Notes: generated from the sequence alone by a model not told the origin. A stretch of DNA of 63,977 bases, filler included, from Candidatus Rokuibacteriota bacterium (GCA_031406795.1; 7 parts of 7 records of this genome joined end to end with filler, not necessarily neighbours in it); one strand, 5' to 3'; shown: positions 1 through 19,219, counted from the whole stretch's first letter. Program-made: numbers and translations.

Positions 1-1
1 G

Positions 2-202
2 ATGTTCCTGCTCTCCGAGTCCTGCACCGGCCACACCAACGGCGAGACGGTCGCCGAGATCACCGTGGCCACCTGTTGGGACGCCGACCGGTTGGACCTT
101 GCGCGTGTCGGCAAGATACCCCGCCCGGAGCGTCTCTGCACAGCTGCCGCCCGCGACCCCGTGATCATCGCTTGGGCCTGTAGCAGGAGCCAGGGTCGAT
201 GA
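2..202 (+). CDS. HD-domain phosphohydrolase-like protein, C-terminal part (5' truncated by window edge)
   Basis: TCWDADRLDLARVG matches the DADRLD motif at the end of HD domains. Confidence 0.7.
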   Translation: MFLLSESCTGHTNGETVAEITVATCWDADRLDLARVGKIPRPERLCTAAARDPVIIAWACSRSQGR

Positions 203-325
203 TGGTCAGCGACATCATGGCCGGCTAAGCCTTGTACAACGTGCAGTCGCATCCACAGCAGCCGTGGTGCATCGAAACAAAAATGTTCAGGCCGCGAAGC
301 AATCATCGACGAAAGGAAACCGATC

Positions 326-490
326 ATGTGGCGATGCCAAGGACATAACTGCGGGTACACTTACGATCCAGCCAAGGGGGATAAACGGGGTAAAATCCCG
401 CCCGGGGTCGCCTTCGAGGACCTCCCTGAGAATTGGAAGTGCCCATGCTGCGGTGCCAGCAAGAAGATGTTCAAGAAGATCGACGGCTGA
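326..490 (+). CDS. Rubredoxin, 54 aa (absent from the ORF track)
   Basis: Manual translation [71 protein letters not shown] signature; AAGGA RBS upstream. Confidence 0.93.
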
Positions 491-574
491 TTTCTCCGTC
501 CTCGTCAGCGGTAGTCGCCCGCGCCCCCGTCGCTCACCCCGGCGGGTCCTTCACCCTGACCGGGTGGGGCAGCT

Positions 575-793
575 TCACCTTACGGCCGCAATCAATCCCA
601 CGAACGCACCGAGCAGCACCATGACCATGGGCTGGCAGGTGATCGCTCAGCCGCTGCCGGCATAACGCGAGAGGAGAGAAACCGTCAAACCAATAGCCGC
701 ACCTGCAGATATGCCAACGACCGCCTTGAGCACAACCTTTGGCTTGTTGTTCATATTGTTTGATAGGATGCGAGGTAGGACTCGACGTTTCAT
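575..793 (-). CDS. Putative small two-TM selenoprotein with UxxxC motif (start 793 or 754; UGA at 649-647)
   Basis: Manual translation (MKRRVLPRILSNN)MNNKPKVVLKAVVGISAGAAIGLTVSLLSRYAGSG-U-AITCQPMVMVLLGAFVGLIAAVR*; hydrophobic helices either side of the UGA; hairpin directly downstream; GGGGAG RBS before ATG 793. Confidence 0.62.
607..646 (-). promoter_or_regulatory. Candidate bacterial SECIS of the small membrane selenoprotein
   Basis: CACC..CAGC-CCAT-[GGTC]-ATGG-T-GCTG..GGTG; apical loop begins with G at +21 from UGA. Confidence 0.55.
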
Positions 794-907
794 CCGGGCA
801 CGGCTCCCCCATCCAGATGATCTTGAGGGACGCGCACCTCTCCCAGCCTCACATCAACGCTCATCCGGACCATGAAGCCTAACTGCTTGTTTTTCCTTCG
901 AAAGAAC

Positions 908-984
<77 letters not shown>

Positions 985-1067
985 TTTTCAGCGATTCTCG
1001 GCTGATTGTACACGCTTCAACGCACCGGACCTACCCCAGCGGCGGTGCAGGCGCGAAGCGGTCTCGT

Positions 1068-1706
1068 TCAGAAGGCATACGCAAGCGACACCAACGCTGA
1101 AACGTCCCCCGTGTCGAAGAACCATTCCACGCCGATCCCGGCAAGTAGCAACTCGTTCAACCAGCCATTCAGCGACAAGCCCGCCGACAGATCGCCGCCG
1201 TACGCCTTCTTGAAGCTTTCGTGATAGGTCGCACCAAGAAGCAGGGAAATATTCCTGCGAACATTGATCTCGGCGCCACCGCCAAATTGAAACATGAGGT
1301 GCTCGTCGGCGAAGGTGGGTCTGCCGTCGACGATCGTGTCGGCCAAGGCGTTCGAGACCCCAACCCTCAGGAAAGGGTCTGCCGTCCGCCTCGGCAAGAC
1401 GTGGCAGGTGAGGCCGATCCCGTATTCGGAGCTCTTGAATTTCACGTGCCTTGCTCCATGGGTGTCGGGTTCGTCGCCCTCCAGCATCGCCTGCTGATGA
1501 AAGGCGTCGAGATCGAAGTTCTTGTTGACCGGAAGACGGACCCTGGCGCTGAAGTCCAGACTGTTCCGATCGATGGTGACATCGCCCACCCAGGTCGTGC
1601 CGATGCCGATGCCGAAATGGCGTCTGCCCAGCGATTCCGCGCCGGCGGGTGAAACGACGACGAACCCCGAGAGCAATGCTGCAAGGACGGCTGCTTTTCT
1701 CTTCAT
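1068..1706 (-). CDS. Outer-membrane beta-barrel protein (OmpA/OmpW-like 8-strand barrel)
   Basis: Signal peptide, alternating amphipathic strands, DPFLRVGV and FQFGGGAE motifs, C-terminal aromatic YAF. Confidence 0.75.
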   Translation of the reverse strand: MKRKAAVLAALLSGFVVVSPAGAESLGRRHFGIGIGTTWVGDVTIDRNSLDFSARVRLPVNKNFDLDAFHQQAMLEGDEPDTHGARHVKFKSSEYGIGLTCHVLPRRTADPFLRVGVSNALADTIVDGRPTFADEHLMFQFGGGAEINVRRNISLLLGATYHESFKKAYGGDLSAGLSLNGWLNELLLAGIGVEWFFDTGDVSALVSLAYAF

Positions 1707-1760
1707 TGCCGTTCGCCTGCCCCGGCGGTGACGGACCCGCCGGTGCTGCGTGTTCTCCCG

Positions 1761-1964
1761 TCAGTTATCTTCCGGCTCCGGCGCCAGCTTGTAGCGGGTG
1801 ATGATTTCCTGCGCCAGCATCGCCGTCCCCTGCCGCATCATCACCTGCTCGCGCTGTTCCGCATCGAGGTTCTCGGGTTCGAGCTTCTCGTTCGCCACGC
1901 GCACGGCGAGTTTGACGTAGGTGAGATACTGGTAGAGCGACTCGCGCGAGAGTTCTTCGGTCAT
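1761..1964 (-). CDS. Small helical hypothetical protein, 67 aa
   Basis: GAGGAG RBS, protein-like composition, GC3-biased codons. Confidence 0.7.
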   Translation of the reverse strand: MTEELSRESLYQYLTYVKLAVRVANEKLEPENLDAEQREQVMMRQGTAMLAQEIITRYKLAPEPEDN

Positions 1965-2156
1965 TTCCGGCTCCTCTGTAAGTTGTCCCGATAGTGAACG
2001 AGGAAGCGGCGGGAGTCAATTCCGGCAACCTCCCGTCGTCGGAGGGCGCGCCGCGCCCGGCTTTTGTCAATTCCGGCGAGTTGGGGTAAATTCGCAGCGC
2101 CCGGCGAGCGGATGCTCCGGGGCGTGGCAACCGGAAAGAGGCGGGAGGAGTTCGAC

Positions 2157-3818
2157 GTGACGGTCGGCGGTGCGGCGCGGGCGAGGAGCCTGCTGGAATC
2201 CGGCCGCTACAAGGAGGCGGGAGAGCTGTTCGTCGCCGCGGGCGAGTTGGCCTCGGCGGCCCGCTCCTTCGTGGGCGCGAAGGATTACTTCCGGGCGGCG
2301 GTCTGCTACGAGAAGGCGCGCAAACCGCTGGACGCGGCGCGGCTCTACCAGCAAATCCGTCACTGGAGCAAGGCCGCCGAGTTGTACGCCGTGGCGGGCG
2401 ACACGCTCCGGGCGGAATTCGCCCGGGAACAGCTGGAGAAGGAGCAGGAGGGGCTGGGGCACTCCCGCACTCCGGCCACGGCCTGGGCCCACACGCCCCT
2501 CAGCACCGCGGCGTCGCACGCGGCTCCGGCGGCCGCCGCGCCGTCGCCCGCCTCGCAGCGGGGCCCCGAGGTGACGTGGCCGACCGGGGAACTCTGGCGG
2601 GCGATCCGTGACGGCGACACCGGCGCCGCCGTCGAGCGCTACCTTCACGGTGGCCGCTCGGGCTGGGAGCTCATCGCCGAGGCCGGGTCCGGCGAGGTGC
2701 TCAAGGCGCTCGCGGAAACCCTGCTCCAGGCGCGCGACCACGCGGTGGCCGCCGAGGCGTTCCACAAGGCCGGGGAGCTGCTGCGATCCGCCCAGTGCCT
2801 GAGCCTCGCCGGCGTCAACGAGGAAGCGGCGCACCTCTTCTACAATCTCGGGCAGAAAGCGCTGGCCGCCCAGCACTTCGAGAAGGCCCAGGCCTGGGAG
2901 CAGGCCGCCGCCGTCTATCTGCAGGAATCGCTGTTCCTGGACGCGGCGCGCTGCCACGAGAAGGACGACGACCCGGTGCGCGCCGCCGCGATGTACCTCA
3001 AGGCGCGCAAGCTCGACCTCGCGCTGCCGCTGCTGCAGTCGGTGCCGCCGACGCACCGCGGCTACGCGGCCTGCCGGCTGCTGGCGGGCAAGATCCTCTT
3101 CCAGAAGGGCCAGAAGGAGCTTGCCGTCTCCCTGCTCTCGCCCCTGCTCGAGTCCCCTCCCCGGACCGAGGAGGACCTCGAGTCGTACTATCAGGCCGCC
3201 ACGCTGATGGAGATGGGCGGCGCCACCGAGCGGGCGCGGGACGCCTATCTGCTGCTTCAGGAAACCCGTTTCGGCTACAAGGACGTCACCGAACGCCTGC
3301 AGCGGGGGCCGTCGGCCGAGCCCCCCGGCGCTCCCCTGGCCGCCCCGGCGCCGTCGGAGGGCGCCGCCCCGCCGCCGGCGATGGACCTCGCGCCGCTGCG
3401 CGACTGCAGCCTCTTCAACCGGTTGGGCAACGAGGAACTCCGGCGCCTCTGGACGATCGGCAGGACGGGAGAGTGCAAGCCGGGCAAGGTGATCCTGAAG
3501 GCGGGCGAGGTTGCGGCGGGCCTGATGGTGGTGCTCTCGGGGGGGATCACGATCACCCCCGACCCGGCGAACCCGATCATGGCCTCGGGCTTCCTGGGGC
3601 CGGGGGACTACGTGGGGTTGGGCAGCCTGTTCAACGGGCCGCCGCTGGCCAACGCGCTGGTCGCGCAGAAGGGCACCCGCCTGCTCGTGCTGCCGCCGGA
3701 GCCGCTGGAAGCCCTGCTGACGGCGGAGCCGGAACTGGGAGCGCGCTTCTACCGCTCCGTCGCGGAACACCTCGTCCAGACGCTGATGGCCGGGAAGTCG
3801 AGCCCGACCCGGACGTAG
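2157..3818 (+). CDS. TPR/SNAP-like helical-repeat protein with C-terminal cyclic-nucleotide-binding-like domain
   Basis: Repeated AA..Y.KA helices; LRDCSLFNRL...GKVILKAGE...LGPGDYVG cNMP-domain pattern; GTG start chosen by GGAGGAG RBS. Confidence 0.75.
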   Translation: MTVGGAARARSLLESGRYKEAGELFVAAGELASAARSFVGAKDYFRAAVCYEKARKPLDAARLYQQIRHWSKAAELYAVAGDTLRAEFAREQLEKEQEGLGHSRTPATAWAHTPLSTAASHAAPAAAAPSPASQRGPEVTWPTGELWRAIRDGDTGAAVERYLHGGRSGWELIAEAGSGEVLKALAETLLQARDHAVAAEAFHKAGELLRSAQCLSLAGVNEEAAHLFYNLGQKALAAQHFEKAQAWEQAAAVYLQESLFLDAARCHEKDDDPVRAAAMYLKARKLDLALPLLQSVPPTHRGYAACRLLAGKILFQKGQKELAVSLLSPLLESPPRTEEDLESYYQAATLMEMGGATERARDAYLLLQETRFGYKDVTERLQRGPSAEPPGAPLAAPAPSEGAAPPPAMDLAPLRDCSLFNRLGNEELRRLWTIGRTGECKPGKVILKAGEVAAGLMVVLSGGITITPDPANPIMASGFLGPGDYVGLGSLFNGPPLANALVAQKGTRLLVLPPEPLEALLTAEPELGARFYRSVAEHLVQTLMAGKSSPTRT

Positions 3819-3866
3819 CCGGGAGGCGGCCGGGACTCAGCCGCGAGAACCGGGGGCGGGAAGAAC

Positions 3867-3933
<67 letters not shown>

Positions 3934-3943
<10 letters not shown>

Positions 3944-4542
3944 ACATCCGTGCCGAGCAATCGTACCATCTTCGGGGCCAGGAGCCGCAACGCGCGCCCC
4001 CGGTGGCTGACGGCGGCCTTCTGCGCCGGGTCCAGTTCGGCCATCGTCCGTCCGTCGGGGAGCAGGAAGACCGGGTCGTAGCCGAAGCCCCCCGTGCCCC
4101 GCGGCGCCAGGGCGATCGCCCCTTCGCAGGCGCCTTCCGCGGACTCCTCGCGCCCGTCCGGCAGGGCGAACACCGCCGCGCAGACGAAGCGGGCGGCGCG
4201 CTGTCCCGGCGGGACGTGCGCCAGCTCGTCCAGGAGCTTCTCGCACCGGGCGCGATCGTCGCCCGCGGCGTAGCGCGCCGAGAAGATGCCCGGCGCGCCC
4301 CCGAGCGCGTCGACCGCGAGCCCCGAGTCCTCGCCGAGCGTCGGCAGCCCGGAGCCGGCCGCACCCGCCCGGGCCTTGATCCGCGCGTTTTCGACAAAGG
4401 TCGTCCCCGTCTCCTCGGGCGAGAGCAGCCCGGGGAAATCGTCGAACGTCAGCACCTCGAAGCGCGCGCCGGTCAGATCGCCGAGGATCGCGGCCAGCTC
4501 CGCGGCTTTCTTGCGGTTGCCCGAGGCCAACAGAAGCCGCAT
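3934..4542 (-). CDS. rdgB: Non-canonical purine NTP pyrophosphatase (Ham1 family)
   Basis: ASGNRKK, ETGTTFVENA..KA, EDSGL, GFGYDPVF, SHRGRA motifs; directly after rph. Confidence 0.95.
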
Positions 4543-4554
4543 CGGCGCCCCGCG

Positions 4555-5292
4555 CTACTTCTTGCCGATGACGATGGAACCGAGCGCCTCGGCCTGCAGC
4601 GCGATCAGGTCGTGGATGCCGCCGCGCGCCGCCGCGCCCAGTTCCTCGAGCCGGTGCCAGGAGAAGGGGGCGCCCTCGGCCGTGCCCTGGATCTCGACGA
4701 GTTTGCCGCCGCCGGTCATCACGACGTTCATGTCGACCTCGGCGCGCGAGTCCTCCTGGTAGCACAGATCCAGCAGCACCGCGCCGTCCACCACGCCGAC
4801 GCTCACCGCCGCGACGTGCTCGATCAGCGGCACGCGGGCGATCTTGCCGGCGGCGCGCAGCTTCTCGAAGGCCAGCGCGAGCGCGACGAAGGCGCCGGTG
4901 ATCGACGCGGTGCGCGTGCCGCCGTCGGCCTCGAGCACGTCGCAGTCGACCCAGACGGTGCGCTCGCCGAAGGCGCCGGTGTCCGTCACGGCGCGCAGCG
5001 AGCGGCCGATCAGCCGCTGGATCTCGTGGGTGCGCCCGCCGATCTTCCCCGCGCTCGACTCGCGCTGCATGCGCGTGTTGGTCGCGCGCGGCAGCATCGA
5101 GTACTCGGCCGTGACCCAGCCCTTGCCGGTGTTGCGCAGGAAAGGGGGCACTTTCTCTTCGATGCTCGCCGCGCACAGGACCGTCGTGCCCCCCACGCTG
5201 ATCAGGGCCGAGCCCTCCGCATTGCGCTGGAACCCCGTCTGGATCTTCACGGGGCGCAGCCCGCTCGGTTCGCGTCCGTCACATCGCTTCAT
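4555..5292 (-). CDS. rph: Ribonuclease PH
   Basis: [41 protein letters not shown]; start at ATG 5292 with GAGGAG RBS. Confidence 0.97.
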
Positions 5293-5432
5293 GTCCACTC
5301 CTCGTTGTCGGTAGGCGCGCATGATACCCCATCGCTGCGGGCGAGGAAACCGGCCCACGCGCGGACTGCCCGCCGGATTGACTTTCGCCCGCGTCGGCGG
5401 TAGAGCTTGCCCATGCCCTCGCCGGAGATCCC

Positions 5433-6146
5433 GTGGTTCGGCGCGCCGCGCTGAAGAAGCTCCGGCGGTGGCTCCTGCGCGCCGCCCTCGTGCTGGCGGC
5501 CCTGCTGGCGCTCTATGAGGGCGCGATCTTCACGCGGATCCTCTGGTGGCGCACGCACAACCCGACGGACACCGCCTTCATGCGCGCCCGGCTGGGCGAG
5601 CTGCGCAAGAAGGACCCGCGGGCGACGCTGACCCAGGTCTGGGTGCCCTACGAGCGCATCTCGCCGCAGCTCAAGCGCGCCGTCGTGGCCGCCGAGGACG
5701 CCAAGTTCCTGGCGCACGAAGGCTTCGACTGGGAGGGGATCCAGGAGGCCTACGAGAAGAACACCCGGCGCGGCCGGGTCGTGGCGGGCGGCTCGACGAT
5801 CAGCCAGCAGCTCGCGAAGAACCTCTTTCTCTCCCGGGCGCGCACGCCCTGGCGCAAGGGCGAGGAGGCGCTGATCACGGTGATGCTCGAAACCGCGCTC
5901 GAGAAGCGGCGTATTCTCGAGCTGTACCTGAACCTGATCGAATGGGGCGAGCGCACCTTCGGCGCGGAGGCGGCCGCGCGCCGGCACTTCGGCGTCGGCG
6001 CCGCGGATCTCGACACCGGGCAGGCCGCGCGCCTGGCGGCGATGGTGCCGAACCCCCGGTACTACGAGCGGCGCGGGGTGACGCCGTTTCTGGCGCGCCA
6101 GAGCGCGGTCATCCGCGCCCGCATGCCCCAGGTGCGCGTCCCGTGA
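5433..6146 (+). CDS. mtgA: Monofunctional peptidoglycan transglycosylase
   Basis: [47 protein letters not shown]. Confidence 0.93.
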
Positions 6147-6214
6147 CGCCGGCCGCGGCGCGATCGCCGGGGAACTTGACATCCGAAGACCGGTCGCGAT
6201 CATAGCGGATTTAG

Positions 6215-7495
6215 ATGGTGACTCAGGGGACGCCGGAGCGGGAGCTTCGGGAACTGCGTTTCGTCGTCGGGGCGCGCAGCCGCGTCGGCCGCTACACGCA
6301 GCGGGCGTGGTGGCGCTCCACCATCCTCGAGGGCGTCGTGCTCGGCGTGTTCATCCTCAACGAGTACGTCGCGAAAAAGACCCTCGGCGCCGGCGACGCC
6401 ATCCTCACGGCGCTGGTCATCGGGCCGACCGCGGCGCTGCTCTTCTCCGCGTGGTGGTCCGGCCTGCTCGACCGCCGCGAGAAATCCTCGACGTTCCTGG
6501 TCTTCGGCATGCTCGGGCGCCTCTCGCTGCTCTTCGTGGCGCTTGCCGGCTCCGCCGGTTCCTTCACCGCCGTCATCGCCGCGGCGACCTTTCTCTTCGG
6601 CGCCATCGTGCCGGCGTCCAACGCGCTGCTCCAGCGCAACTTCACGACGAGCGAGCGCGGCCGCGTCATCGGCCTCGGGATCGCGCTGCAGGCGCTCACG
6701 GCGATCGCGGTCTCGCTGCTGGTGGGCCGCCTGTACGACTGGCAGCCGCAGGCCTACCGGGCCGTCTATCCGCTCGCCGCGGTCTGCGGCTTCTTCTCCT
6801 GCCTGAGCCTCGCGCGGGTGCGCTTCCGCTCGCGCCCCGGCGAACCGTCCGAGCGCAGACTCTTCGGCGCCGGCGTGGGCGGCGCACTGGCCGGCGCGCT
6901 GCGGCGCCCCTTCGGCGGCGCATTGATCCTGCTGCGCGACGACCGCGGCTTCCGGCGCTACGAGATGGGGTTCATGGCCTACGGGCTGGCCTGGATGATG
7001 CTGCAGCCAACGATTCCGGTCTTTCTCGTCGAGAAGCTGCAGGTGGCCTACGCCGAGGTGGCCAACGCGCGCGGGCTGATCTACTTCGCGATGATCGCCG
7101 CGCTCTCGCACCCCTTCGGGCGGTTGCTCGACCGCGTCGGCCCGATCCGGGTCTCCCGGATCGCGTTCACGATCCTGGCGTTCTTCCCGCTACTGCTCGC
7201 CGCCGCCACCGGCGTCCGGATGGCCTATCTGGCCTTTCTCGTCTACGGCTGCGGCATGGCCGCGGTGAACCTGGGCTGGACCACCGGGCCGATCCACTTC
7301 GCGCGCGATCGCGACTCGGCGGGATACATGGGCGCGCACGTCGCGCTGGTCGGGGTGCGCGCCATCGTCGGCGGCCCCTTCGGCATCTGGCTCTACCGGG
7401 CCAGCGGCTCGCCGACGGCGACCTTCGCGCTGGCCTCGGCGCTCTTCCTCACCGGCTCGCTGATCATGGCCAGCGCTAACCGTGACGGTCGCTGA
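6215..7495 (+). CDS. MFS transporter
   Basis: About 12 hydrophobic segments; GLLDRR and GRLLDRVG loop motifs. Confidence 0.85.
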   Translation: MVTQGTPERELRELRFVVGARSRVGRYTQRAWWRSTILEGVVLGVFILNEYVAKKTLGAGDAILTALVIGPTAALLFSAWWSGLLDRREKSSTFLVFGMLGRLSLLFVALAGSAGSFTAVIAAATFLFGAIVPASNALLQRNFTTSERGRVIGLGIALQALTAIAVSLLVGRLYDWQPQAYRAVYPLAAVCGFFSCLSLARVRFRSRPGEPSERRLFGAGVGGALAGALRRPFGGALILLRDDRGFRRYEMGFMAYGLAWMMLQPTIPVFLVEKLQVAYAEVANARGLIYFAMIAALSHPFGRLLDRVGPIRVSRIAFTILAFFPLLLAAATGVRMAYLAFLVYGCGMAAVNLGWTTGPIHFARDRDSAGYMGAHVALVGVRAIVGGPFGIWLYRASGSPTATFALASALFLTGSLIMASANRDGR

Positions 7496-7640
7496 AAAGG
7501 GCCCGCCTGCGGCGGTGGGCGCCTTGCCACCTGCGAGCTTTGCGAGTGGGTGGAAGCCTGCGACGGGCACCAGCCCGTCTCGGCATCTGTTCGTCGTCCG
7601 CCTTGCATCCGGACCCTTTTGATCGACCTCTCCGTTACCG
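7480..7640 (-). repeat. Structured dispersed repeat (MITE-like family A), copy 1
   Basis: Inverted ends GGTCGCTGAAAAGGG/CCCTTTTGATCGACC; core TGCAAGG..GAGACGGGC-TGGT-GCCCGTCGCA on minus strand; overlaps the MFS stop codon. Confidence 0.8.
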
Positions 7641-7670
7641 GAACTCCTTGGGGGCGCGGAAGGGAGTCCG

Positions 7671-7994
7671 TTATTCCCCCCGGCGGACTTTGGCCTTCCG
7701 GCTCTCGCCGCGCTCGCGCAGTCGCGCGATCTCGCCCCTGATCTCCTCTTCCGTCTTGCGCGCCGCCTCGGCGTCCCCGCTCGCGTGCGCGGCGCTCAGA
7801 CGCTCCCGCGACATGATCTCCTCTTCGGCGATCTTGGCCCGGGTTTCGGCCTCGATTTCGGCGATGGCCAGCTTCTGGTCGTGCGTCAGGGGCACGACGT
7901 CGCCCTGCTTCTGCTGCATCCGCTCCATGGCCAGTTCGAGCGCGCTCTTGATGCCGCCCGTCTTCTTCGCATCTTTTTTCGGATCCTTCGTCAT
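7671..7994 (-). CDS. Conserved-looking coiled-coil hypothetical protein
   Basis: IKSALELAMER N-terminus, charged helical body, GGAGGGG RBS. Confidence 0.75.
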   Translation of the reverse strand: MTKDPKKDAKKTGGIKSALELAMERMQQKQGDVVPLTHDQKLAIAEIEAETRAKIAEEEIMSRERLSAAHASGDAEAARKTEEEIRGEIARLRERGESRKAKVRRGE

Positions 7995-8129
7995 GTACCC
8001 CTCCCTCTGCACTGGACGACGGTCACACCCCGCGACCTCTACGGTGCATCCGGTGTCGGCACCTTGTCAAAGCCGGTTGGCGGGAACCGGATTAACCGGA
8101 ACGAGCAGAATGATCATGCACCCGACATC

Positions 8130-8266
8130 GGGCGGGGATCAACCCCGCCCCTACGACGATACCGTACGGGTGTAGGAGAGGGGTTCACGCGAGGGACCCT
8201 TTGCCCTTCGGCGCCAGCCGCCTACGACGATACCGTACGGGTGTAGGGGAGGGGTTCACCCCCTCC
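8130..8266. repeat. GTAG-type REP cluster with a 27-nt direct repeat
   Basis: GGGCGGGGATCAACCCCGCCCCTAC palindrome; CCTACGACGATACCGTACGGGTGTAGG at 8150 and 8221. Confidence 0.8.
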
Positions 8267-8297
8267 AGCGCATCGGACGGGCCTGTTCGACGGCCGG

Positions 8298-9356
8298 TCA
8301 ACCGTTGACGGTGATGCCCGGCGCGCCGGCCTCGACGCTCCCGACGATCGCCGCCCACGGCAACCCCGCCGCGTGCAGATCGCGCACGAGCTCACGCGCC
8401 TGCGCCTCCGGCAGCGCCGCGAGCAGCCCGCCCGAGGTCTGGGGATCGAACAGGACCTCCTCCTGTTCGCGGCGCAGCTTCACGGCCAGGCGCAGACGAT
8501 CGCCGCACAGCGCGCGGTTGCCGGCGTTGGAGCCGGTGCCCACGCCCGCGGCGTACATCTCCACGGCGCCCGGGTACAGCGGCAGCGCCGGGAAGGAGAG
8601 GACGATCCGGACCCCCGAGCCGACGGCCATCTCCTCGGCGTGCCCGGCGATCCCGAACCCGGTGATGTCGGTCAGCGCGTGAATCTCGTACTTGAGCGCC
8701 GCTTCGCACGCCGCCATGTTCAGTGCGGCGGTCACCGGCAGCACGTCGCGCTCCAGATTGGCGAAGGGATACTTCCCGGCGCGGCTGGCGTTGAAGAGCA
8801 CGCCGTTGCCGAGCGGCTTGGTCAGCACGAGCGCATCGCCCGGCCGCGCCCCGCAGTTGGCCAGCACGCGGTCGGGGTGTACCAGGCCGGTCACCGCCAG
8901 GCCGTATTTCGGCTCGGGGTCCTCCACCGAATGCCCGCCGGCGAGGCAGGCGCCGGCCTCCACGACCTTCTCGGCGCCCCCGCGCAGCAGATCGCGCAGC
9001 AGGCCGAGATCGAGTTCCTTCGCGGGAAAGTTCACGATGTTGAGCGCCATGATCGGCCGCCCGCCCATGGCCCAGACATCGGAGAGAGCATTGGCGGCGG
9101 CGATGCGCCCGAACCAGACCGCGTCGTCCACTACCGGCGTGATGTAATCCACCGTAGAGATGATGGCGATTTCGGGGCTGACCCGGTACACCGAGGCGTC
9201 GTCCGCCGTCTCGAAACCGACGAGCAGGTTCGGGTCGGCGCTGCGCGGCAGCCCGGCGAGCACCTCCGACAGCACGGCCGGAGGAAGTTTCGCCGCTCAA
9301 CCGCAGGTGCGCGAGGCACCCATCAAGGTCTTCTTCGACCCGAAAGGCTGCTGCAT
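8298..9356 (-). CDS. selD: Selenide, water dikinase, selenocysteine-containing (UGA at 9299-9297 = residue 20)
   Basis: MQQPFGSKKTLMGASRTCG-U-AAKLPP reads in frame into ETADDA, TVDYITPVVDD, AAANALSDVWAMGG, GGHS, TDITGFG, DPQTSGGLL; GGGAGGGG RBS. Confidence 0.95.
9255..9296 (-). promoter_or_regulatory. Candidate SECIS of selD
   Basis: GGCGA..CCTCCGGC-[CGTGCT]-GTCGGAGG..TCGCC directly 3' of the UGA. Confidence 0.7.
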
Positions 9357-9376
9357 GATCCCCTCCCGTGAGCGCG

Positions 9377-9814
9377 TCAGGCGGCCGGCGCGCGGTAGCG
9401 GCGGTGCTTGCGGCGAACCTTGCTCCCCGCCACGCGATAGTTTGTCTCGAAGAAACGCTCGAACTCCTCGACCGTGCTGAACTCGGCGACGTTGTCGCCC
9501 ACCTCGTCCGCGCGCTCGCAGGCGTCGGAGCCGTAGTTGCGGCAAAGCTGCGGCCGGAGCTCGTAGACGCCGCAGCCGCCGTCGGCGGCGATGTGCCGGC
9601 AAGGAGTCCCGACCTGGATCCACCAGTCCTCGTCCTTGTCGATGTAGATGCAGACACCCAGGTGCGAGAGATACCAGTGGATGAGATCGCGGTCGTCCTC
9701 GCCGCGCGGCGGTTCGAGGGCCACCGCGACGTAGCGGCAGCAGGTCGCGCCGCAGGCGTGACAGGGATGCCCGTGTGCGAGGCCCGCAGTTTCCGCCTTC
9801 GTGCTGTTCGCCAT
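9377..9814 (-). CDS. YkgJ-family cysteine-cluster (Zn/Fe-chelating) protein
   Basis: CHACGATCC...PCRH...CGVYELRPQLCRNY; likely co-transcribed with selD. Confidence 0.85.
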   Translation of the reverse strand: MANSTKAETAGLAHGHPCHACGATCCRYVAVALEPPRGEDDRDLIHWYLSHLGVCIYIDKDEDWWIQVGTPCRHIAADGGCGVYELRPQLCRNYGSDACERADEVGDNVAEFSTVEEFERFFETNYRVAGSKVRRKHRRYRAPAA

Positions 9815-9998
9815 GCCGTCGCGGATTGTCGGGGGATCGCCGGCGCTTGTCAACCATCGCCGGACCCGCCCCGCGATTCCCGCGCCGTTGGAAATCCTCC
9901 CGCCTGATGTATACTTCCCGACAAATGTTCGTAACTGGCACCAGATCTTCGACCAGCACACTGAGACGGCATCGCGGGCCGCATCTCGCGTCGGAGTC

Positions 9999-10808
9999 AT
10001 GAGCGGGCAGAGCCCCCACGGCGCCGCGGACCCTCCGCCGGGAAGCGAGACGCCGACCCGAGACAGCCACGGGCGATGGGTGCGCCGTGCCGCCGAGGAG
10101 GGCGAAGCCCGGCCCGGAAAAACCGCGGTCCCGCGTTTCGTCATCGACGACCGGATCTTCGAGGCCACGGCGCCCGTCGCGGAAGAGCGCCCCCCGGATG
10201 AGGAGGGATTCGGACGCGGCATGTCCCGCCGGCTGCTCCTCGCCGGCGCCCTGCTGCTGGGCGCGGCTCTGTTCGCCTTCCAGCGCGGCTGGTTCACCGC
10301 CGGTCCGCCGGACGCGGTCGATCCGGAGCCTTCCCCCTCGGTCGTCGCGCCCGTGACGGTCCCCACCTTGCGCAAGCAGGCGATCCCCCGCCCGGCCAGG
10401 CCGGCCGTCACCGCCGCGGCGCCCCGCCCGGCTGCGGAGCCGATCGCTCCCGTGCCTGCTCCCGCGCCCGATCCCGCTCCTGCGCCCACGCTGGCGCCCG
10501 CACCGGCTCCGACGCCGGCTCCGGCGGCGACCGCAGTCGAGGTCGCCCCGTCCACCCCCTCCGCCCCGTCGCTGCCGAACGAAGAGGACTTGTTCAACCT
10601 GGCCGAGGAATACCTGCAGCTCGGCGACGACAAGAGCGCCGAGGCGCTCTATCGCCGCATCCTCGACGAGGGGAGCCAGCGGGGCCGGGCGGCCCTCGCA
10701 CTCGGCGACGTCTACTCACGGAAAAACGACTTCGCCCGCGCCCAGCAGTTCTATCGGGCGTCGAAACAATTTTTTCGGGACGAGAGCCGCACGGTGTCGC
10801 CGCCGTGA
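9999..10808 (+). CDS. Single-pass membrane protein with Pro/Ala linker and C-terminal TPR
   Basis: TM segment LLLAGALLLGAALFAF, PAPAP low-complexity linker, two TPR-like helix pairs. Confidence 0.7.
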   Translation: MSGQSPHGAADPPPGSETPTRDSHGRWVRRAAEEGEARPGKTAVPRFVIDDRIFEATAPVAEERPPDEEGFGRGMSRRLLLAGALLLGAALFAFQRGWFTAGPPDAVDPEPSPSVVAPVTVPTLRKQAIPRPARPAVTAAAPRPAAEPIAPVPAPAPDPAPAPTLAPAPAPTPAPAATAVEVAPSTPSAPSLPNEEDLFNLAEEYLQLGDDKSAEALYRRILDEGSQRGRAALALGDVYSRKNDFARAQQFYRASKQFFRDESRTVSPP

Positions 10809-10831
10809 GCGACCGGCGCGGCGGCTGACCC

Positions 10832-11668
10832 ATGCCGCATCCCTGGTTGCTGCCGCTTCTCGCCGGGCTCTTCGGCGCGATCATCGGCAGCTTTCTCAAC
10901 GTGGTGATCCACCGGCTGCCCGCCGGCGAGTCCATCGTCTTCCCGGGTTCGCACTGCCCGCGCTGCGACGCGCCGGTCCGCGCGTGGGACAACATCCCGG
11001 TCCTCGGCTGGATCGCGCTGCGCGGGCGCTGCCGCGACTGCCGCGAGCCGATCTCGACGCGCTACCCGCTCGTCGAGATGGCGAACGCGCTGCTCTGGGC
11101 GGCCCTGGCGCTGCGCTTCGGACCTGGGGTCCAGTTCTTCACGTCCGCCGCGCTGTGCTCCGCGCTGCTGGCGATCACGCTGATCGACGTCGACCACTGG
11201 ATCATCCCCGACGCGATCACGCTGCCCGGCATCCTCGTCGGCCTGGCGACGAGCTTCTTCCTGCCGCCGCGCGACAGCCTGCTCGCCGAATTCCTCCACC
11301 ATCGCCTGGGGCTCGGCCACCTACCCGGCCTTCTCGCGTCACCAGGGTTCTGGGACTCGCTCGCCGCGATGCTGCTCGGCGGCGGGTTGTTCTACCTCGT
11401 CGCCGTGCTGAGCCGCGGCGGCATGGGCGGCGGCGACATCAAACTCACCGCGATGATGGGCGCCTTCCTCGGCATGCGCGACCTCGGCGTCGCGGTCTTC
11501 GTCGGGTTGCTCGCGGGGTCGACGGTCGGGATCGCGCTGATGATCGCCGGCCGCAAGACACGCAAGGACGCGATCCCCTTCGGCCCCTTCCTCGCCCTCG
11601 GCGGAATCTGCGCGGTCTTCTGGGGACGCGCGCTCGTCGCCTGGTATCTGGACCTGCGGGGCTATTGA
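10832..11668 (+). CDS. pilD: Type IV prepilin peptidase/N-methyltransferase
   Basis: GSFLNVVIHRLP, CPRC and CRDC, IDVDH, MGGGDIKL, IPFGPFLA. Confidence 0.96.
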   Translation: MPHPWLLPLLAGLFGAIIGSFLNVVIHRLPAGESIVFPGSHCPRCDAPVRAWDNIPVLGWIALRGRCRDCREPISTRYPLVEMANALLWAALALRFGPGVQFFTSAALCSALLAITLIDVDHWIIPDAITLPGILVGLATSFFLPPRDSLLAEFLHHRLGLGHLPGLLASPGFWDSLAAMLLGGGLFYLVAVLSRGGMGGGDIKLTAMMGAFLGMRDLGVAVFVGLLAGSTVGIALMIAGRKTRKDAIPFGPFLALGGICAVFWGRALVAWYLDLRGY

Positions 11669-11702
11669 CGCTCGAGAAAACCATAAAGGGACACGGCGAT
11701 TC

Positions 11703-11779
11703 GTAGCGGCGGGGTTGACCCCGCCCGGGATGAAACGATCGGGCGAGCGCTGGAGGGAGGGGTTCAACCCCTCCCCTAT
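11703..11779. repeat. GTAG-type REP doublet (REPIN-like)
   Basis: GTAGCGGCGGGGTTGACCCCGCCC ... GGGAGGGGTTCAACCCCTCCCCTAT in inverted orientation. Confidence 0.75.
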
Positions 11780-11822
11780 GACGAACGGCAGGGGTGAGAA
11801 ACGGCCTGCCAAGGAGGGTGCA

Positions 11823-12191
11823 ATGTATTATTCTGCCATTACCGCGACGTTTTCCGCCGCCCACTCGCTGCGCAACTACCAGGGCAAGTGCGAGCGCCTG
11901 CACGGGCACAACTGGAAGATCGAGGTCATGACCGCCACCGAGACGCTCGACGAGGCGGGAATGGGCCTCGACTTCACCGTGCTGCGCGAGCGCCTGGGCG
12001 CCGTTCTCGCGCTGCTCGACCACCGCTTCCTGAACGATCTGGAACCATTCCAGGCCTGCAGCCCCTCCTCGGAACTGATCGCCCGCCACATCTTCGAGCA
12101 GCTCGAGCCGGCGGTGAATGACGCGCGCGTGCGGCTCGTCGCGGTCAAGGTCTGGGAGTCCGAGGGCTCGTGGGCGGAATTCCGGCCCTGA
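11823..12191 (+). CDS. queD: 6-carboxytetrahydropterin synthase
   Basis: FSAAHSL..CERLHGHNW, LDHRFLND, PSSELIA, VWES. Confidence 0.93.
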   Translation: MYYSAITATFSAAHSLRNYQGKCERLHGHNWKIEVMTATETLDEAGMGLDFTVLRERLGAVLALLDHRFLNDLEPFQACSPSSELIARHIFEQLEPAVNDARVRLVAVKVWESEGSWAEFRP

Positions 12192-13441
12192 TCGGCAAGC
12201 CGGCCGGGTCGCGACTCCGGGTCGTCGTCATCGGCGCCGGCCCGGCCGGCCTGATGGCCGCCGGCGAGGCGGCGGCAGGCGGCGCGGCGGTCACGCTGCT
12301 CGACGGCGAGAATCGCCCCGGGAAGAAACTCCTGCTCACCGGCAAGGGCCGCTGCAATCTCTCGAACACGCTGCCGCTCGAGCAGTTCCTCGCCGGGTTC
12401 GGCGCGAACGGCGTCTTCCTGCGCAACGCCTGCCACCGCTTCTTCTCGGAACAGCTGCGGGAGTTCTTCGCCGGGATCGGCGTCGAGACCGCACTCGAGC
12501 GCGGCGGGAGGATCTACCCGGCTCACGGGGGCGCCGCGGCGGTGCTCGAGGCGCTGCTCGCGTGGGTCGCCCGGCGCGGCGTGCGGGTGCTCACCGGGCG
12601 GCGCGTGATGCGCGTGACGGGCGAGCCCGACGGGGGCTTTCTGGTGGCCGGGGCGGACTTCGCGGAGCCCGCCGATCGCGTGGTGCTGGCCGTCGGCGGG
12701 GCTTCGTACCCGCACACCGGCTCGCGCGGCGACGGCTACCGGATCGCGGCGGCGCTCGGGCACCGCATCGTCGCGCCCCGCCCCGCGCTCGTGCCCGTGG
12801 TCTGCCGCGAACCCTTCTTCAAGCGTCTGGCGGGGCTGAAGCTGCGCAACGTCCGACTCGTGGCGCGGCCGGCCGGCCACCCGGCCCTCGAGTCCTTCGG
12901 CGAGGTCCACGCCACGCCCTTCGGGATCTCCGGACCGGCGGTCTTCCCGGTCAGCGCGGCCATCGGCGCGCTGGCGTCCGTCTCCCCCGTGCCGCTGCGG
13001 ATCGATCTCAAGCCGGCTCTGGATGCGACGACGCTCGAAGCGCGCGTGGAGCGCGAGATGAGCTCCCTGGCCAGCCGGAGTCTCGCGACGGCGCTCGCGA
13101 CCCTGCTGCCGCGGCAGTTGATCCCGGTCTTCCTCGAGGTCGCCGCGCTCGACGGTTCACTGGCCGCGGTGAAAGCCGGGCGCGCGGCGCGGCTGAAGAT
13201 CGCAGAACTGCTCCGGGCCTTCCCCTGCACCGCGGTCGGCACCCTGCCGATCGCGTACGGTATGGCCACCGCCGGCGGCGTCGATTTGCGCGAGGTGCAC
13301 CCGGTGACGATCGGCTCGCGGCTGGTCCCCGGGCTCTTCTTCGCCGGGGAGGTGCTCGACCTCGACGGTGACACCGGCGGGTACAACCTCCAGGCGGCCT
13401 TCACCACGGGGCACCTGGCGGGGAAGGCCGCCGCGTCGTGA
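12170..13441 (+). CDS. HI0933/BaiN-family NAD(P)/FAD-dependent oxidoreductase (start uncertain)
   Basis: GAGPAG, GKKLLLTGKGRCN, GGASYPHTGSRGDG, GEVLDLDGDTGGYNLQAAF. Confidence 0.92.
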   Translation: MGGIPALIGKPAGSRLRVVVIGAGPAGLMAAGEAAAGGAAVTLLDGENRPGKKLLLTGKGRCNLSNTLPLEQFLAGFGANGVFLRNACHRFFSEQLREFFAGIGVETALERGGRIYPAHGGAAAVLEALLAWVARRGVRVLTGRRVMRVTGEPDGGFLVAGADFAEPADRVVLAVGGASYPHTGSRGDGYRIAAALGHRIVAPRPALVPVVCREPFFKRLAGLKLRNVRLVARPAGHPALESFGEVHATPFGISGPAVFPVSAAIGALASVSPVPLRIDLKPALDATTLEARVEREMSSLASRSLATALATLLPRQLIPVFLEVAALDGSLAAVKAGRAARLKIAELLRAFPCTAVGTLPIAYGMATAGGVDLREVHPVTIGSRLVPGLFFAGEVLDLDGDTGGYNLQAAFTTGHLAGKAAAS

Positions 13442-14457
13442 TCGATCTCAAGCGGCTCACCCGCGACGAACTCGCCGGGTGTCTGGCCGCGATCGGCCAA
13501 CCGGCGTGGCAGGCCGACGAGGTGCGCCGCTTCCTCTTCGTCAAGGGCGTGAGCGACATCAAAGCGCTGACGACGCTGCCGAAGCCGGCGCGGGCGGCGC
13601 TCGCGCAGCACTGCGCGATCCTGACGCCGGAGGTGGCCGAGCGGCGCGCCGGCGCCGACGGGACCACCAAGCTGCTGCTGCGGTATCACGACGGCGCCGC
13701 GTGCGAGACCGTGCTGATGCCGGCGGGCGGGCGCCTGACCCAGTGCCTCTCGTCGCAGGCCGGCTGCCCCCTCGGCTGCGTCTTCTGCCGGACGGGGGAA
13801 CTCGGCCTGACGCGCAGCCTGCACTGGTCGGAGATCGTCGACCAGTGGCACGCCGCGCGCCGCGCGCTGCCGGCGGGCGCCGCGGTCACCAACCTGGTCT
13901 TCATGGGGATGGGCGAGCCGTTGCTCAATCGCGAGGCGCTGGCCGAGGCCGTGCGCTTTCTGACCTCGAGCGCCGGCGGCGGGATCGCCGCGTCGCGCGT
14001 GACGATTTCCACCGCGGGCATCGTCCCGGGGATCGACTGGCTCGGCGCGGAGCTGCCGCGGGTGAAACTCGCCGTTTCGCTCAACGCCCCGGAGGACGCG
14101 CTGCGCTCGCGGCTGATGCCGGTCAACCGCAAGTACCCGCTGAGCGAGCTGGTCGCGGCGCTGCGCCGCTACCCGACCGGACGGCGGCCGATCACGATCG
14201 AGTACGTGCTGCTCGGCGGGGTCAACGACACGCCGATTCTCGCCGACGCGCTGGCCCGCCTGCTGCGGCGGGTGCACTGCAAGATCAACCTGATTCCGTT
14301 CAACCCCCACTCGGGGCTGCCGTACACCGCGCCGTCGGCCGCAGCCGTGCTGGCTTTCCAGAAGCGGCTCAGATCCGCGGGCTTCACCGTTCTCGTCCGT
14401 CAGAGTCAGGGGGCCGAGATCGGGGCGGCCTGCGGCCAGCTCGGGGCAGGCAGCTGA
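13438..14457 (+). CDS. rlmN: Dual-specificity 23S rRNA/tRNA m2A methyltransferase
   Basis: CLSSQAGCPLGCVFC, FMGMGEP, INLIPFN, AACGQL. Confidence 0.93.
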   Translation: MIDLKRLTRDELAGCLAAIGQPAWQADEVRRFLFVKGVSDIKALTTLPKPARAALAQHCAILTPEVAERRAGADGTTKLLLRYHDGAACETVLMPAGGRLTQCLSSQAGCPLGCVFCRTGELGLTRSLHWSEIVDQWHAARRALPAGAAVTNLVFMGMGEPLLNREALAEAVRFLTSSAGGGIAASRVTISTAGIVPGIDWLGAELPRVKLAVSLNAPEDALRSRLMPVNRKYPLSELVAALRRYPTGRRPITIEYVLLGGVNDTPILADALARLLRRVHCKINLIPFNPHSGLPYTAPSAAAVLAFQKRLRSAGFTVLVRQSQGAEIGAACGQLGAGS

Positions 14458-14482
14458 GGAAAGCTTGCCCGTTTCGCGTTTC

Positions 14483-16264
14483 TCAGCGCCTCGCCACGGG
14501 CTTGCCAGGCTTGCCAGGCTTGGCGGGCTTGGCGGGCTTCATCTCGGGAAACCAGAGCCGGACGCAGGCCCCGCGGCCGGGAAGGTTCTCCGCGGCGATG
14601 CGCCCGCGGTGCGCCGCGACCACCTGGCTGGTGATCGACAGACCGAGCCCGGTCCCGGTCTCCTTGGTCGTGAAGAACGGCTCGAAGATCTTCCCGAGCA
14701 GGTGGGCGGGAATGCCCGGACCGCTGTCGGCGATGCCGACCTCCAGACCCCGGGACCCGCCGCGGACGCGGCGGTCCAGCCGGACGGTGAGCGTGCCGTC
14801 CGCCCCGATCGACTGGGAGGCGTTCATGATGATGTTCAACAGCGCCTGCTGGATCTGCGCGGGGTCCCCCACCATCCACAGCGGCGCCGTCGGCACGGCG
14901 ACCACGAGATCGATGCGCTTCTCCTGCAGCGTCTTGTCGACGAAGGCGAGCATCTGGGAGACCAGGTCGCCGAGGTCGATGGGACGTGTCAGCAGCGGCT
15001 GGTCCTTAGCGAGGATTCCCATTCGTCCGATGATCGCCTCCATCCGCTCCATGTGGTCGATGGTGACCTGAATCCGCCGGTGGAACTCCGCGGGCGTCTT
15101 TTCGAGGAGCCACTCCATGTTGGCGTACATCACGGTCAGCGGGTTCTTCAGCTCGTGCGCGACGTTCGCCGAGATCTCTCCCAGCGAGACGAGCCGGTCG
15201 ATGCGGCGCATCTCGTTGCCGAGCCGCTGATTGTCGGTGATGTCCCGGAAGAGCAGGATCCAGGAGATCCCGGCGCGGGACCGCCGCAGCGGGGTCACCG
15301 AATAGCCGATGCTCTTGCTCTCGCCGTTGCCGATGACGACCGTCGCCTGCGCGCGCGTGATGTGCACGCTGCGACGGCCGAGGCGTCCCAGCAGCGCGGC
15401 GACGAAGTCCGCGCCGAAGAGTTCGGCGAGGTGGCGCCCCTCGACGGGCGCGTCGCCAAGCTGCAGGACCGCTCGCGCCGGGGGGTTCGCGGTGATCACC
15501 CGTCCCGCGCTGTCGAACGTCACGAGGCTGCTGGCCAGGCTGGCGATGACCTGCTCGCTGTAGCGCCGCAGCTCGCGGACCTCGGTCAGGGAACGGCGCA
15601 GGGCGCGGTTGGCCTCGTTGAGCTCGCGCGTCCTCGTGCGCACCGTGGATTCCAGCGCGCGGCCGGCCGCCGCCAGCTTCCGGGTCAGGCTCATCCGGTC
15701 GAGCGCGAGCGAGACGGCCTCGGCGATCGGCAGGAACCACTCCATGTCCGCCGGGGTGCAGCAGCGGGCCCCGGCCGGCGGCGCGAGCACGAGCAGACCG
15801 AGCACGCGGTCGCGGACCACCAGCGGCAGCGCGAGCAGCGACCCCGTCCGCGCGGGCAGCAGCGGGCGCAGGCGCGAGCGGCGCCAGCGGGGGTCACGCG
15901 CGAGATCCGGCGCCACCAGCGGCCGCCCCGCCGCGCACAGCGGTGCGATCAAGGGCTCGTCGGACGCCACCCCCGCCGAGCGCGAGGCGCCGCGGGGGAC
16001 GCCGCGTCCCGCCTTGAGGAAGAAGACGTTCTCGCCTTCCTCCCGCAGCAGCAGCAGCACCACCGAACCGGTATCGAGGCTGCCGGCGAGCAGCTCGACG
16101 AACTTCTCGAGAATCCGGGGCAGCGTGAGCGGCGCCGCGAAGAGCCGCGAAGTCTCGGTGAGCAGGTGCAGCTGGATCGCCGCCGACGCCGACCAGGCGA
16201 CGGCGCCGGCTCCGCTTGCGCCCTCCTTGCCGGCCGGCGGGCTAGCGGAGCGGGATTTCGCCAC
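14483..16264 (-). CDS. Cytoplasmic GAF-PAS sensor histidine kinase
   Basis: GAF, coiled coil, PAS (FRDIT), H-box AHELKNPL, N/G boxes DSGPGI, FFTTK.TGTGLGL; GTG start 16264 inferred. Confidence 0.9.
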   Translation of the reverse strand: MAKSRSASPPAGKEGASGAGAVAWSASAAIQLHLLTETSRLFAAPLTLPRILEKFVELLAGSLDTGSVVLLLLREEGENVFFLKAGRGVPRGASRSAGVASDEPLIAPLCAAGRPLVAPDLARDPRWRRSRLRPLLPARTGSLLALPLVVRDRVLGLLVLAPPAGARCCTPADMEWFLPIAEAVSLALDRMSLTRKLAAAGRALESTVRTRTRELNEANRALRRSLTEVRELRRYSEQVIASLASSLVTFDSAGRVITANPPARAVLQLGDAPVEGRHLAELFGADFVAALLGRLGRRSVHITRAQATVVIGNGESKSIGYSVTPLRRSRAGISWILLFRDITDNQRLGNEMRRIDRLVSLGEISANVAHELKNPLTVMYANMEWLLEKTPAEFHRRIQVTIDHMERMEAIIGRMGILAKDQPLLTRPIDLGDLVSQMLAFVDKTLQEKRIDLVVAVPTAPLWMVGDPAQIQQALLNIIMNASQSIGADGTLTVRLDRRVRGGSRGLEVGIADSGPGIPAHLLGKIFEPFFTTKETGTGLGLSITSQVVAAHRGRIAAENLPGRGACVRLWFPEMKPAKPAKPGKPGKPVARR

Positions 16265-17645: not shown

Positions 17646-17799
17646 GATCACCTTCAAGGCATTTCCTCCGTCATGTCCGGCCATCGCCCGGAGGGCGCGG
17701 CGCACTGTCTGCTCACTCGTCAATTAACCCCAGTTGCCGGGGGAAGTCAACCGGCCGCGCCGTTGTGTCGGCCCGCGACTCCCGCTATCATCGGGCCGC

Positions 17800-18819: not shown

Positions 18820-18936
18820 CAGGCCGCTGATAAAGACCCATCTGCGGCATTGTCCTTCTCCCCGCTCCCTGTGCGGCGGGCACGAGCCCGCCTCAGTCGC
18901 TGGGTCGTCGTCCGCCTTGCACCTGGGCCTTTCTAA

Positions 18937-19122: not shown

Positions 19123-19219
19123 CTAAGCGGCCTGCCGTCCTAGCCCAGCGAAGCGAGGGCAACGAACATGATCAACCCGGCAGTTATTCTTCAGGCACGT
19201 GCTGCCCGGGTCGATCGGG

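Follow-up and report, generated by a model that had tools for sequence, protein, structure and literature searches.

A probable selenocysteine codon in the gene of a small two-helix membrane protein from Candidatus Rokuibacteriota, a relative of the DUF6132 family

Does the UGA codon at positions 649-647 on the minus strand of a stretch of Candidatus Rokuibacteriota DNA end a short reading frame, or does it encode selenocysteine (Sec, U) in a protein that has gone unannotated? The stretch, here called the window, is the whole of the DNA analyzed, 63,977 nucleotides (nt) including filler, from genome GCA_031406795.1 (G000). An earlier sequence-only reading had proposed that a minus-strand frame continues through the UGA and yields a helical hairpin with Sec and Cys in its loop. 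As described below, a previously unannotated gene for a small two-helix membrane protein with a loop selenocysteine is very probably real, and 793..575 on the minus strand is rated with high confidence as a genuine Sec-encoding gene. Its main features are:

575..793, minus strand: candidate selenoprotein gene, with ATG at 793-791, 72 codons and terminal stop TGA at 577-575
752..754, minus strand: alternative start ATG (M14), which would give a 59-residue protein
647..649, minus strand: in-frame TGA, read as U49; the column is TGA in 14 genomes and metagenome contig L047, and Cys in 24 genomes
635..637, minus strand: C53, encoded by TGC and forming the U-x3-C motif with U49; invariant in an 18-row alignment of the U/C-x3-C group

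With TGA read as U, positions 793..578 (minus strand) translate as MKRRVLPRILSNNMNNKPKVVLKAVVGISAGAAIGLTVSLLSRYAGSG-U-AITCQPMVMVLLGAFVGLIAAVR. The frame contains a single internal TGA, at 649-647, and is closed by a second TGA at 577-575. In the mechanical list of open reading frames (ORFs) it is closed at 647 after 48 amino acids, so the longer frame was indeed missed there. Translation also reproduces both lengths first proposed (72 residues from ATG 793 and 59 from ATG 754) and places U49 and C53 four residues apart, as had been claimed. In the close relatives P0003-P0005 conservation sets in precisely at MKRR, with divergent sequence ahead of it; ATG 793, and with it the 72-residue form, is therefore favored as the start. 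M14 is kept in every close relative and a homolog from the same class (G005) begins near it, and the 59-residue form is possibly an alternative product. At the metagenome locus L047 the codon corresponding to ATG 793 is GTG.

The column occupied by U49 can be followed through a large set of relatives. A hidden Markov model (HMM) built from 26 family members was searched against 401 genomes, about one per family across the domain, with every place that showed an internal stop inspected. Matches were found in 38 genomes, and the column is TGA in 14 of these (13 GTDB families, counting G000) and Cys in 24. The sequence-only reading had staked itself on the existence of homologs with Cys or TGA at this position, and both kinds occur. 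Among nearer relatives, a six-frame search detected TGA at the same column in a genome of the same genus (G001, 76% identity) and in one of the same class (G005, 50%), and metagenome contig L047 carries an 83%-identical copy, again with TGA. The gene is present in three of the six species of the phylum that were available for search. TAA and TAG codons flagged in G352 and G222 are terminal stops and not codons of the Sec column; weak six-frame matches in other genomes (G050, G014, G020 and others) are unrelated, and the metagenome pattern matches L048-L051 are chance occurrences of the motif and not hairpin proteins.

The partner of the Sec residue is not always on the same side. The U-x3-C arrangement is found in the window's clade, G005, G307 and G362, the reverse arrangement (C-x3/4-U) in G122, G327, G096, G272, G108, G344, G343 and G260, and a shorter spacing, U-x2-C, in G186.

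Protein databases hold the same family in truncated form. A word-based search of a 5.8-billion-protein collection gave as its only close matches three proteins that break off after ...YAGSG, where the TGA stands. When a profile of four Sec forms was compared with 1.84 billion representatives, 31 matches were obtained at E <= 1e-3, of which 26 were retrieved; these added two more proteins that end at the TGA. Many of the matches are proteins of 50-70 residues with Cys at the Sec column (e.g., ...GGG-C-PLT-C-NPY...), some are of DUF6132 type (...G-C-xSGx-C-P-[IL]-T-S-NP...), and several have a C-terminal thioredoxin domain. The entries P0003, P0004, P0005, P0009 and P0010 all end in ...GSG, the residue before the TGA. 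Some public gene calls of this gene also take spurious codons further upstream as starts. None of the entries found among public calls of the TGA form has the second helix, a systematic annotation error in which the call ends at the UGA and half of the hairpin is lost.

If the UGA is decoded, the codons beyond it should be under selection as protein. When the 19 codons that follow the TGA are compared across 13 lineages, frame 0 shows a mean pairwise identity of 36.7%, a BLOSUM62 score of +1.81 per site and no stops. Frame 1 has 17.5% identity, a negative BLOSUM62 score and 19 stops; frame 2 has 16.1%, again a negative score, and four stops. Only frame 0 is both conserved and free of stops, and the second helix, whose lack of conservation would have counted against the sequence-only reading, is kept past the UGA. 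TGA is nevertheless not a general sense codon in these organisms, since the 15 Sec-form ORFs terminate in TAA or TAG in eight cases and in TGA in seven; the rubredoxin gene of the window also ends in TGA, so that in this genome the codon acts as an ordinary stop.

Contigs from four metatranscriptome libraries (three studies) cover approximately 530-713 at 95-99% identity with the TGA unchanged. Past the TGA they differ from the window by two synonymous changes and one Ala-to-Thr replacement, the latter shared with L047. These contigs are a weak hint of expression. In three of the four runs the interval at about 732-812 has no RNA-contig cover, which is evidence for neither side. The contigs of three runs end at about 712-717, inside the ORF; this is not read as a transcript end, unitigs also breaking at strain variation.

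A selenoprotein gene requires the machinery for Sec synthesis and insertion, and part of it lies on the same contig:

8400..9320, minus strand: selD with one in-frame TGA; TIGR00476, 351 bits, above cut-off

This gene is, judged by its sequence, a Sec-containing selenophosphate synthetase and part of the Sec machinery, in agreement with the Sec-type selD noticed earlier. Elsewhere in the genome selA (541 bits) runs to the end of a contig (G000:C93:4480-5745, L026), and the C-terminal, SelB-specific part of selB (130 bits) stands at the start of another (G000:C88:4-1422, L027); the selB match falls below its cut-off because the gene is cut by the contig end. The two are probably a selAB operon split by the assembly. 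A tRNA-Sec is also present (69.2 bits, above the gathering score), so that selA, selB, selD and tRNA-Sec are all found in G000, selB as its C-terminal part only. Across the family selA occurs in all 13 of the other TGA-form genomes (12 above cut-off) versus nine of 24 Cys-form genomes, a comparison of genomes from different families that are yet not strictly independent. The thirteenth match, in G005, is partial; that genome is 77% complete.

It can be asked at this point whether the UGA is simply an ordinary stop, or the gene a decaying one, with a 48-residue peptide or nothing at all being made and the similarity downstream a residue of the past. Gene callers do close the ORF there, and the RNA downstream folds with an energy that is not exceptional. 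However, a column that is TGA in 13 GTDB families and is then followed by a conserved, stop-free frame 0 is not expected of a stop, nor is the presence of selA in every other TGA-form genome, and the changes that the RNA contigs show past the TGA are of the mild kind (two synonymous, one conservative). Termination or decay is accordingly given very little chance.

Bacterial Sec codons are followed by a structured RNA. In the model of the bacterial selenocysteine insertion sequence (bSECIS), a stem-loop lies directly 3' of the UGA, with a G among the first two loop positions and the loop 16-37 nt away (PMC13188914). The corresponding element in the window is:

604..646, minus strand: SECIS-like hairpin; apical loop GGUC, 626-623; bulged U, 618; 43 nt, -15.6 kcal/mol

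Counting the U of the UGA as nt 1, the GGUC loop occupies nt 24-27, leaving 20 nt between the UGA and the loop, and the bulged U is nt 32. The stem-loop with a G-initiated apical loop and a bulged U that had been described from the sequence is thus there, and it has both the G and the distance of the bSECIS model. The sequence is GC-rich, and taken alone this hairpin is not remarkable. The comparison with relatives is more informative. A sequence qualified if it could form a single hairpin that has a G among the first two positions of the loop and whose loop lies 13-37 nt after the codon; G017, where the loop motif is unaligned, and the second copy in G220 were left out, and the de-duplicated set also excludes G001 and L047, which are near-identical to G000. 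A qualifying hairpin occurs in 12 of 13 de-duplicated Sec lineages and in 12 of 23 Cys forms. The median energy is -14.7 kcal/mol for the 15 Sec sequences before de-duplication versus -1.8 kcal/mol for the Cys forms, and after de-duplication the Sec hairpins are stronger than the Cys ones with a Mann-Whitney p = 3.7e-4; within GC strata the values are p = 0.015 (10 vs 10) and p = 0.052 (3 vs 13). A GGUC loop 19-20 nt after the UGA is found in four separate lineages (the G000 clade, G362, G327 and G108) and also in one Cys form, G128. In G000, G001 and L047 the 53 nt beyond the first post-TGA codon are identical, and the part before the TGA has synonymous differences. This identity, in a small sample, fits a constraint on the RNA that would act on top of the coding constraint. 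An Rfam search over the whole window detected four tRNAs only.

Could the UGA be read through by something other than the Sec apparatus? Three database homologs (P0012, P0023 and P0037) have Trp at the Sec/Cys column (...GSS-W-AFTCNPY... and similar), as might be expected of near-cognate or suppressor decoding to Trp, Cys or Arg. The simplest explanation of these residues, though, is a gene caller that translated TGA under another table; they are probably TGA codons read with a TGA=Trp code, which would make the three proteins further Sec forms. TGA forms are confined to genomes with selA (13 of 13), SECIS-like hairpins follow the TGA, and the homologs have Cys, the usual counterpart of Sec, in its place. 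Suppressor decoding is for these reasons considered very improbable. Decoding as selenocysteine is preferred, and incorporation of selenium at U49 may be inferred from the conserved column, the frame beyond it and the company of the sel genes. In the proposed course of events SelB and tRNA-Sec would read the UGA at 649-647 as selenocysteine, guided by the hairpin whose GGUC loop lies 20 nt downstream.

What kind of protein would this be? The sequence-only reading had pointed to small two-helix proteins of DUF6132 type without being able to confirm the family. It is nearly certain, from profile comparison, that the window protein is a relative of DUF6132. When the U/C-x3-C group (18 rows) is aligned by hhalign with DUF6132-type proteins (28 rows), the probability is 99.0% with E 2.8e-18 over 62 columns, and the Sec column falls on the invariant second Cys of the DUF6132-type proteins. 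Sec forms occur even inside the family as Pfam defines it: at a gathering cut-off of 23.2 bits for DUF6132 (PF19628), G327 (33.5 bits) and G260 (30.4 bits) pass when U is read as C, and G344 (22.2 bits) falls just under. The window protein itself (P0001) has no DUF6132 match at E <= 10 and no Pfam family above cut-off; full-length matches below the threshold are obtained for its 76%-identical relative P0006 (13.2 bits) and for G005 (9.6 bits). The suggested likeness therefore stands as homology and fails as Pfam membership, and with homology by hhalign and a sub-threshold Pfam score the protein is filed as a divergent DUF6132 relative. In the Atlas the Cys homolog P0011 has DUF6132 clusters as its neighbors (0.89), a lead only.

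The resemblance covers size (about 55-75 residues), two glycine-rich helices and a loop in which Cys is followed by P/A-[ILM]-T-x-N-P. The differences lie in the loop. Typical DUF6132 proteins have C-x4-C-P-x-T-S-N-P (28-row alignment), whereas the window protein lacks the first Cys, with Y/G there, has Sec as the second Cys, and carries an extra Cys four residues on (U-x3-C). Sec would thus replace the invariant second Cys of DUF6132, and C53 would take over from the usual upstream Cys. Other sources add little about the family. No NCBIfam model matches the window protein or any member tested, a sequence-profile search of the PDB gave no related solved structure, and a full-text literature search for 'DUF6132' returned one unrelated paper, with no function recorded for the family. 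Further literature searches brought up no relevant work.

The predicted structure is that of a hairpin:

668..736, minus strand: helix 1, about residues 20-42, with a G-x3-G-x3-G glycine zipper (AlphaFold2; G31 and G35 invariant)
581..628, minus strand: helix 2, about residues 56-71, after the Sec codon (AlphaFold2; G66 invariant; frame 0 conserved)

For the 59-residue form, modeled with AlphaFold2 from a 26-row alignment (model m4b2ade8bde64), the helices span 4-31 and 42-58 with a 10-residue loop between them. The invariant glycines G31, G35, G46 and G66 make G-x3-G patterns on both helices (18-row alignment), which suggests tight helix packing and perhaps oligomers. Sec and Cys are placed in the loop directly before a conserved (N/Q)-P. 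Counts of Lys/Arg in the U/C-x3-C group are 2.7 for the N-terminal tail, 1.2 for the C-terminal tail and 0.67 for the loop, and they weakly suggest an outside loop between two inside termini. The protein would be a membrane-embedded helical hairpin with glycine zippers, whose short loop presents U49-x3-C53 before an (N/Q)-P helix cap.

Clues to function come mainly from genes that surround members of the family. Neighbors were scanned within 1.5 kb on either side at 30 loci, some of them from related genomes (122 ORFs). A thioredoxin-fold gene lies within this distance in 10 of the 30 loci, and in nine it is the next gene on the same strand, in approximately seven GTDB families; in some loci the spacing is 2 nt or the genes overlap. 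Other recurring neighbors are:

pyridine-nucleotide disulphide reductases, in 5 of 30 loci
OsmC, in 4 of 30 loci
rubrerythrin, in 4 of 30 loci
rhodanese, in 3 of 30 loci

Two kinds of thioredoxin stand next to these genes. One kind comprises plain WCxPC proteins of cytoplasmic type, frequently together with a reductase; members of the other carry a signal peptide, a lipoprotein signal or a membrane anchor. CcmH is present at one locus. In several proteins the hairpin is fused to a C-terminal thioredoxin domain (P0030, P0035, P0039 and the Sec form G260, with P0028 a weak case), and a word search aimed at 'longer' proteins gave one fusion. The sequence-only reading had allowed for a membrane redox or a metal-binding selenoprotein. 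The thioredoxin neighbors and fusions strengthen the redox half of that suggestion; the metal half has gained little. A thioredoxin-linked redox function for the hairpin protein is judged about evenly balanced between right and wrong. In such a role the Sec/Cys pair would cycle between selenol/thiol and selenenylsulfide at the membrane surface and would trade electrons with thioredoxin-fold proteins, for thiol redox or peroxide defence.

Two Sec-form loci have contexts of their own. The G260 gene (L088:126-665 on the minus strand, L096) encodes a Sec form of 180 residues whose fusion partner, a thioredoxin-fold domain (Pfam 28.5 bits), seemingly lacks CxxC; downstream are a membrane-anchored redoxin and a multihaem cytochrome, and upstream an encapsulin-type (Linocin_M18) gene. 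In G096 (L080/L102) three tandem thioredoxin genes precede the Sec form, the nearest overlapping it by 11 nt and having a signal peptide; downstream come OsmC and an ArsR-type regulator, and a gene with a rhodanese domain is found within 4 kb.

Small membrane proteins with paired thiols are also known from metal resistance. MerT, MerF and MerE are very small membrane proteins that depend for their function on Cys pairs at the membrane, and the window protein is likewise very small, membrane-bound by prediction and equipped with a Cys/Sec pair. A genuine selenoprotein of this kind could use the U-x3-C loop, a pair of soft ligands at the membrane surface of a tiny hairpin, to bind or pass a soft metal or metalloid (Hg, Cu, Cd, As). 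ArsR-family regulator genes do lie near two loci (L059, L080). Among the families tabulated in the review of Zhang et al. 2026 are several metal-linked membrane selenoproteins, including the SO_0444 Cu/Zn efflux transporter, a cation ATPase and a putative mercuric transport protein (PF02411) (PMC13188914). However, no mer, cop or ars structural genes were detected in the 30 + 13 loci scanned, MerT-type PF02411 is not among the Pfam matches at E <= 10, no other metal family is matched, and the neighbors that recur are thioredoxins, reductases, OsmC and rubrerythrin. The likeness to the Mer proteins, a comparison from general knowledge, stops where Pfam matches and mer genes would be expected, and a metal-handling role is regarded as unlikely.

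Rhodanese genes raise another possibility, namely that the selenoprotein carries sulfane sulfur or selenium, as a persulfide or perselenide, in sulfur trafficking or detoxification with rhodanese-type proteins. They stand next to the gene or close to it in L072, L073 and L079, and G096 has one within 4 kb; L079 has an MBL-rhodanese fusion, and DUF302 is adjacent in L072. But rhodanese is present in just three of 30 loci plus G096 (L102), fewer than have a thioredoxin-fold gene, and the window's clade has no rhodanese neighbor. Such sulfur carriage is held to be distinctly unlikely. Redox exchange with thioredoxin-fold proteins is the preferred function.

A bolder form of the thioredoxin link can be drawn from known membrane systems. 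The thiol-disulphide transporters CcdA and DsbD have Cys pairs beside prolines at or within the membrane and are built of six to eight helices. The family described here resembles them in having Cys/Sec near a proline at the membrane and neighbors that include both cytoplasmic-type and exported thioredoxin-like proteins and CcmH; it differs in having no sequence relation to them and two helices only. The hairpin, probably as a glycine-zipper oligomer, might be a minimal transmembrane selenol/thiol relay from cytoplasmic thioredoxin to exported thioredoxin-like proteins, a speculative idea with a small chance of being correct. It would mean that the job of DsbD/CcdA could be done by a 60-residue protein whose loop dips into the membrane, with selenium in some lineages. 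What speaks for a relay is the occurrence of cytoplasmic-type and exported or anchored thioredoxin-fold neighbors, CcmH, the C-terminal fusions and the N-P cap after the Cys/Sec. Of the 38 carrier genomes, however, 37 also have DsbD_TM, with no complementary distribution, and the family is therefore no replacement for DsbD.

Taken jointly, a genuine selenoprotein decoded through a SECIS element and SelB, folded as a DUF6132-like membrane hairpin and provided with a thioredoxin-linked redox loop, is considered fairly likely. Several observations weigh against this combined account. On the RNA side, the hairpin criteria are those of the present analysis and not bSECISearch, the Sec form of G307 has no hairpin under them, the 58-66 nt after the UGA have an unexceptional minimum free energy against shuffled sequences (z = -0.3 to -0.6; G000 -0.37), and whole-segment folding energies do not separate Sec from Cys forms. 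Carry-over of DNA could account for the contigs in the RNA libraries. As for the protein, the AlphaFold2 model has a mean pLDDT (predicted local distance difference test) of 67, a modest confidence, and a loop on the outside would, if the weak topology signal is right, sit opposite a C-terminally fused or cytoplasmic thioredoxin. The thioredoxin context comes mostly from Cys-type DUF6132 loci; redox neighbors occur within 4 kb in only three of the 13 other Sec-form loci (G096, G307 with OsmC, and G260), and in the window's own clade there is none except the convergent rubredoxin. A complex prediction for a thioredoxin with the DUF6132 protein adjacent to it (the G170 pair) scored 0.01, which is counted for neither side.

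How new is such a family? The May 2026 review of the prokaryotic selenoproteome (Zhang et al. 2026) catalogs 119 families in its Table 1 (PMC13188914). That table has no DUF6132/PF19628 entry and no small membrane family with U-x3-C or C-x4-U (PMC13188914). The only U-x3-C motif listed there is that of TsoA (LULAxC, NF045695, 144 positions) (PMC13188914), and TsoA has no match in G000 at E <= 10. A DUF6132-like family is likewise not mentioned in the available portions of the deep-Sep and BSepDB papers. According to the review, Deng et al. 2026 predicted 63 selenoprotein genes in a Methylomirabilota metagenome-assembled genome and listed new candidates that are unvalidated (PMC13188914); the window's family could be among them. 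It shares with the cataloged families, as far as the review describes them, a redox-type Sec/Cys pair, a hairpin directly after the UGA and restriction to genomes with Sec machinery. What has been found is a new selenoprotein family, or the Sec branch of a family of unknown function, and not a new kind of system.

If selenium in the protein proves true, a widespread family, among the smallest and one of few in the membrane, would be added beyond the 119-family catalog. For DUF6132, whose function is unknown, the Sec/Cys pair flags a catalytic residue, and the thioredoxin neighbors and fusions point to a likely partner. Cys forms of cultivable bacteria could reveal the function, and Sec forms could then show what selenium adds at the membrane surface.

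The immediate surroundings of the gene in the window are as follows:

326-490, plus strand: rubredoxin gene, Pfam 71.7 bits, convergent on the 3' end of the selenoprotein gene
908-984, minus strand: tRNA-Arg(TCT) gene, upstream of the selenoprotein gene on the same strand

The converging rubredoxin gene is as the sequence-only reading had reported it. A promoter and terminator scan of window positions 300-1100 found none. The window consists of several contigs separated by N blocks (19297-19396, 32508-32607, 35205-35304, 51366-51465, 54873-54972 and 61049-61148); only 1-19296 is contig C234, and distances across the blocks, which join contigs, are therefore meaningless. At the 3' end of the gene, a same-genus locus (L004) compared with window positions 540-577 shows a 12-nt gap that takes out the stop region. 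The ORF of L004 continues for four codons to the next TGA (...AVPTRSG), and the 3' flank, CCCCAC.CGGTCAGGGTGA, is otherwise kept.

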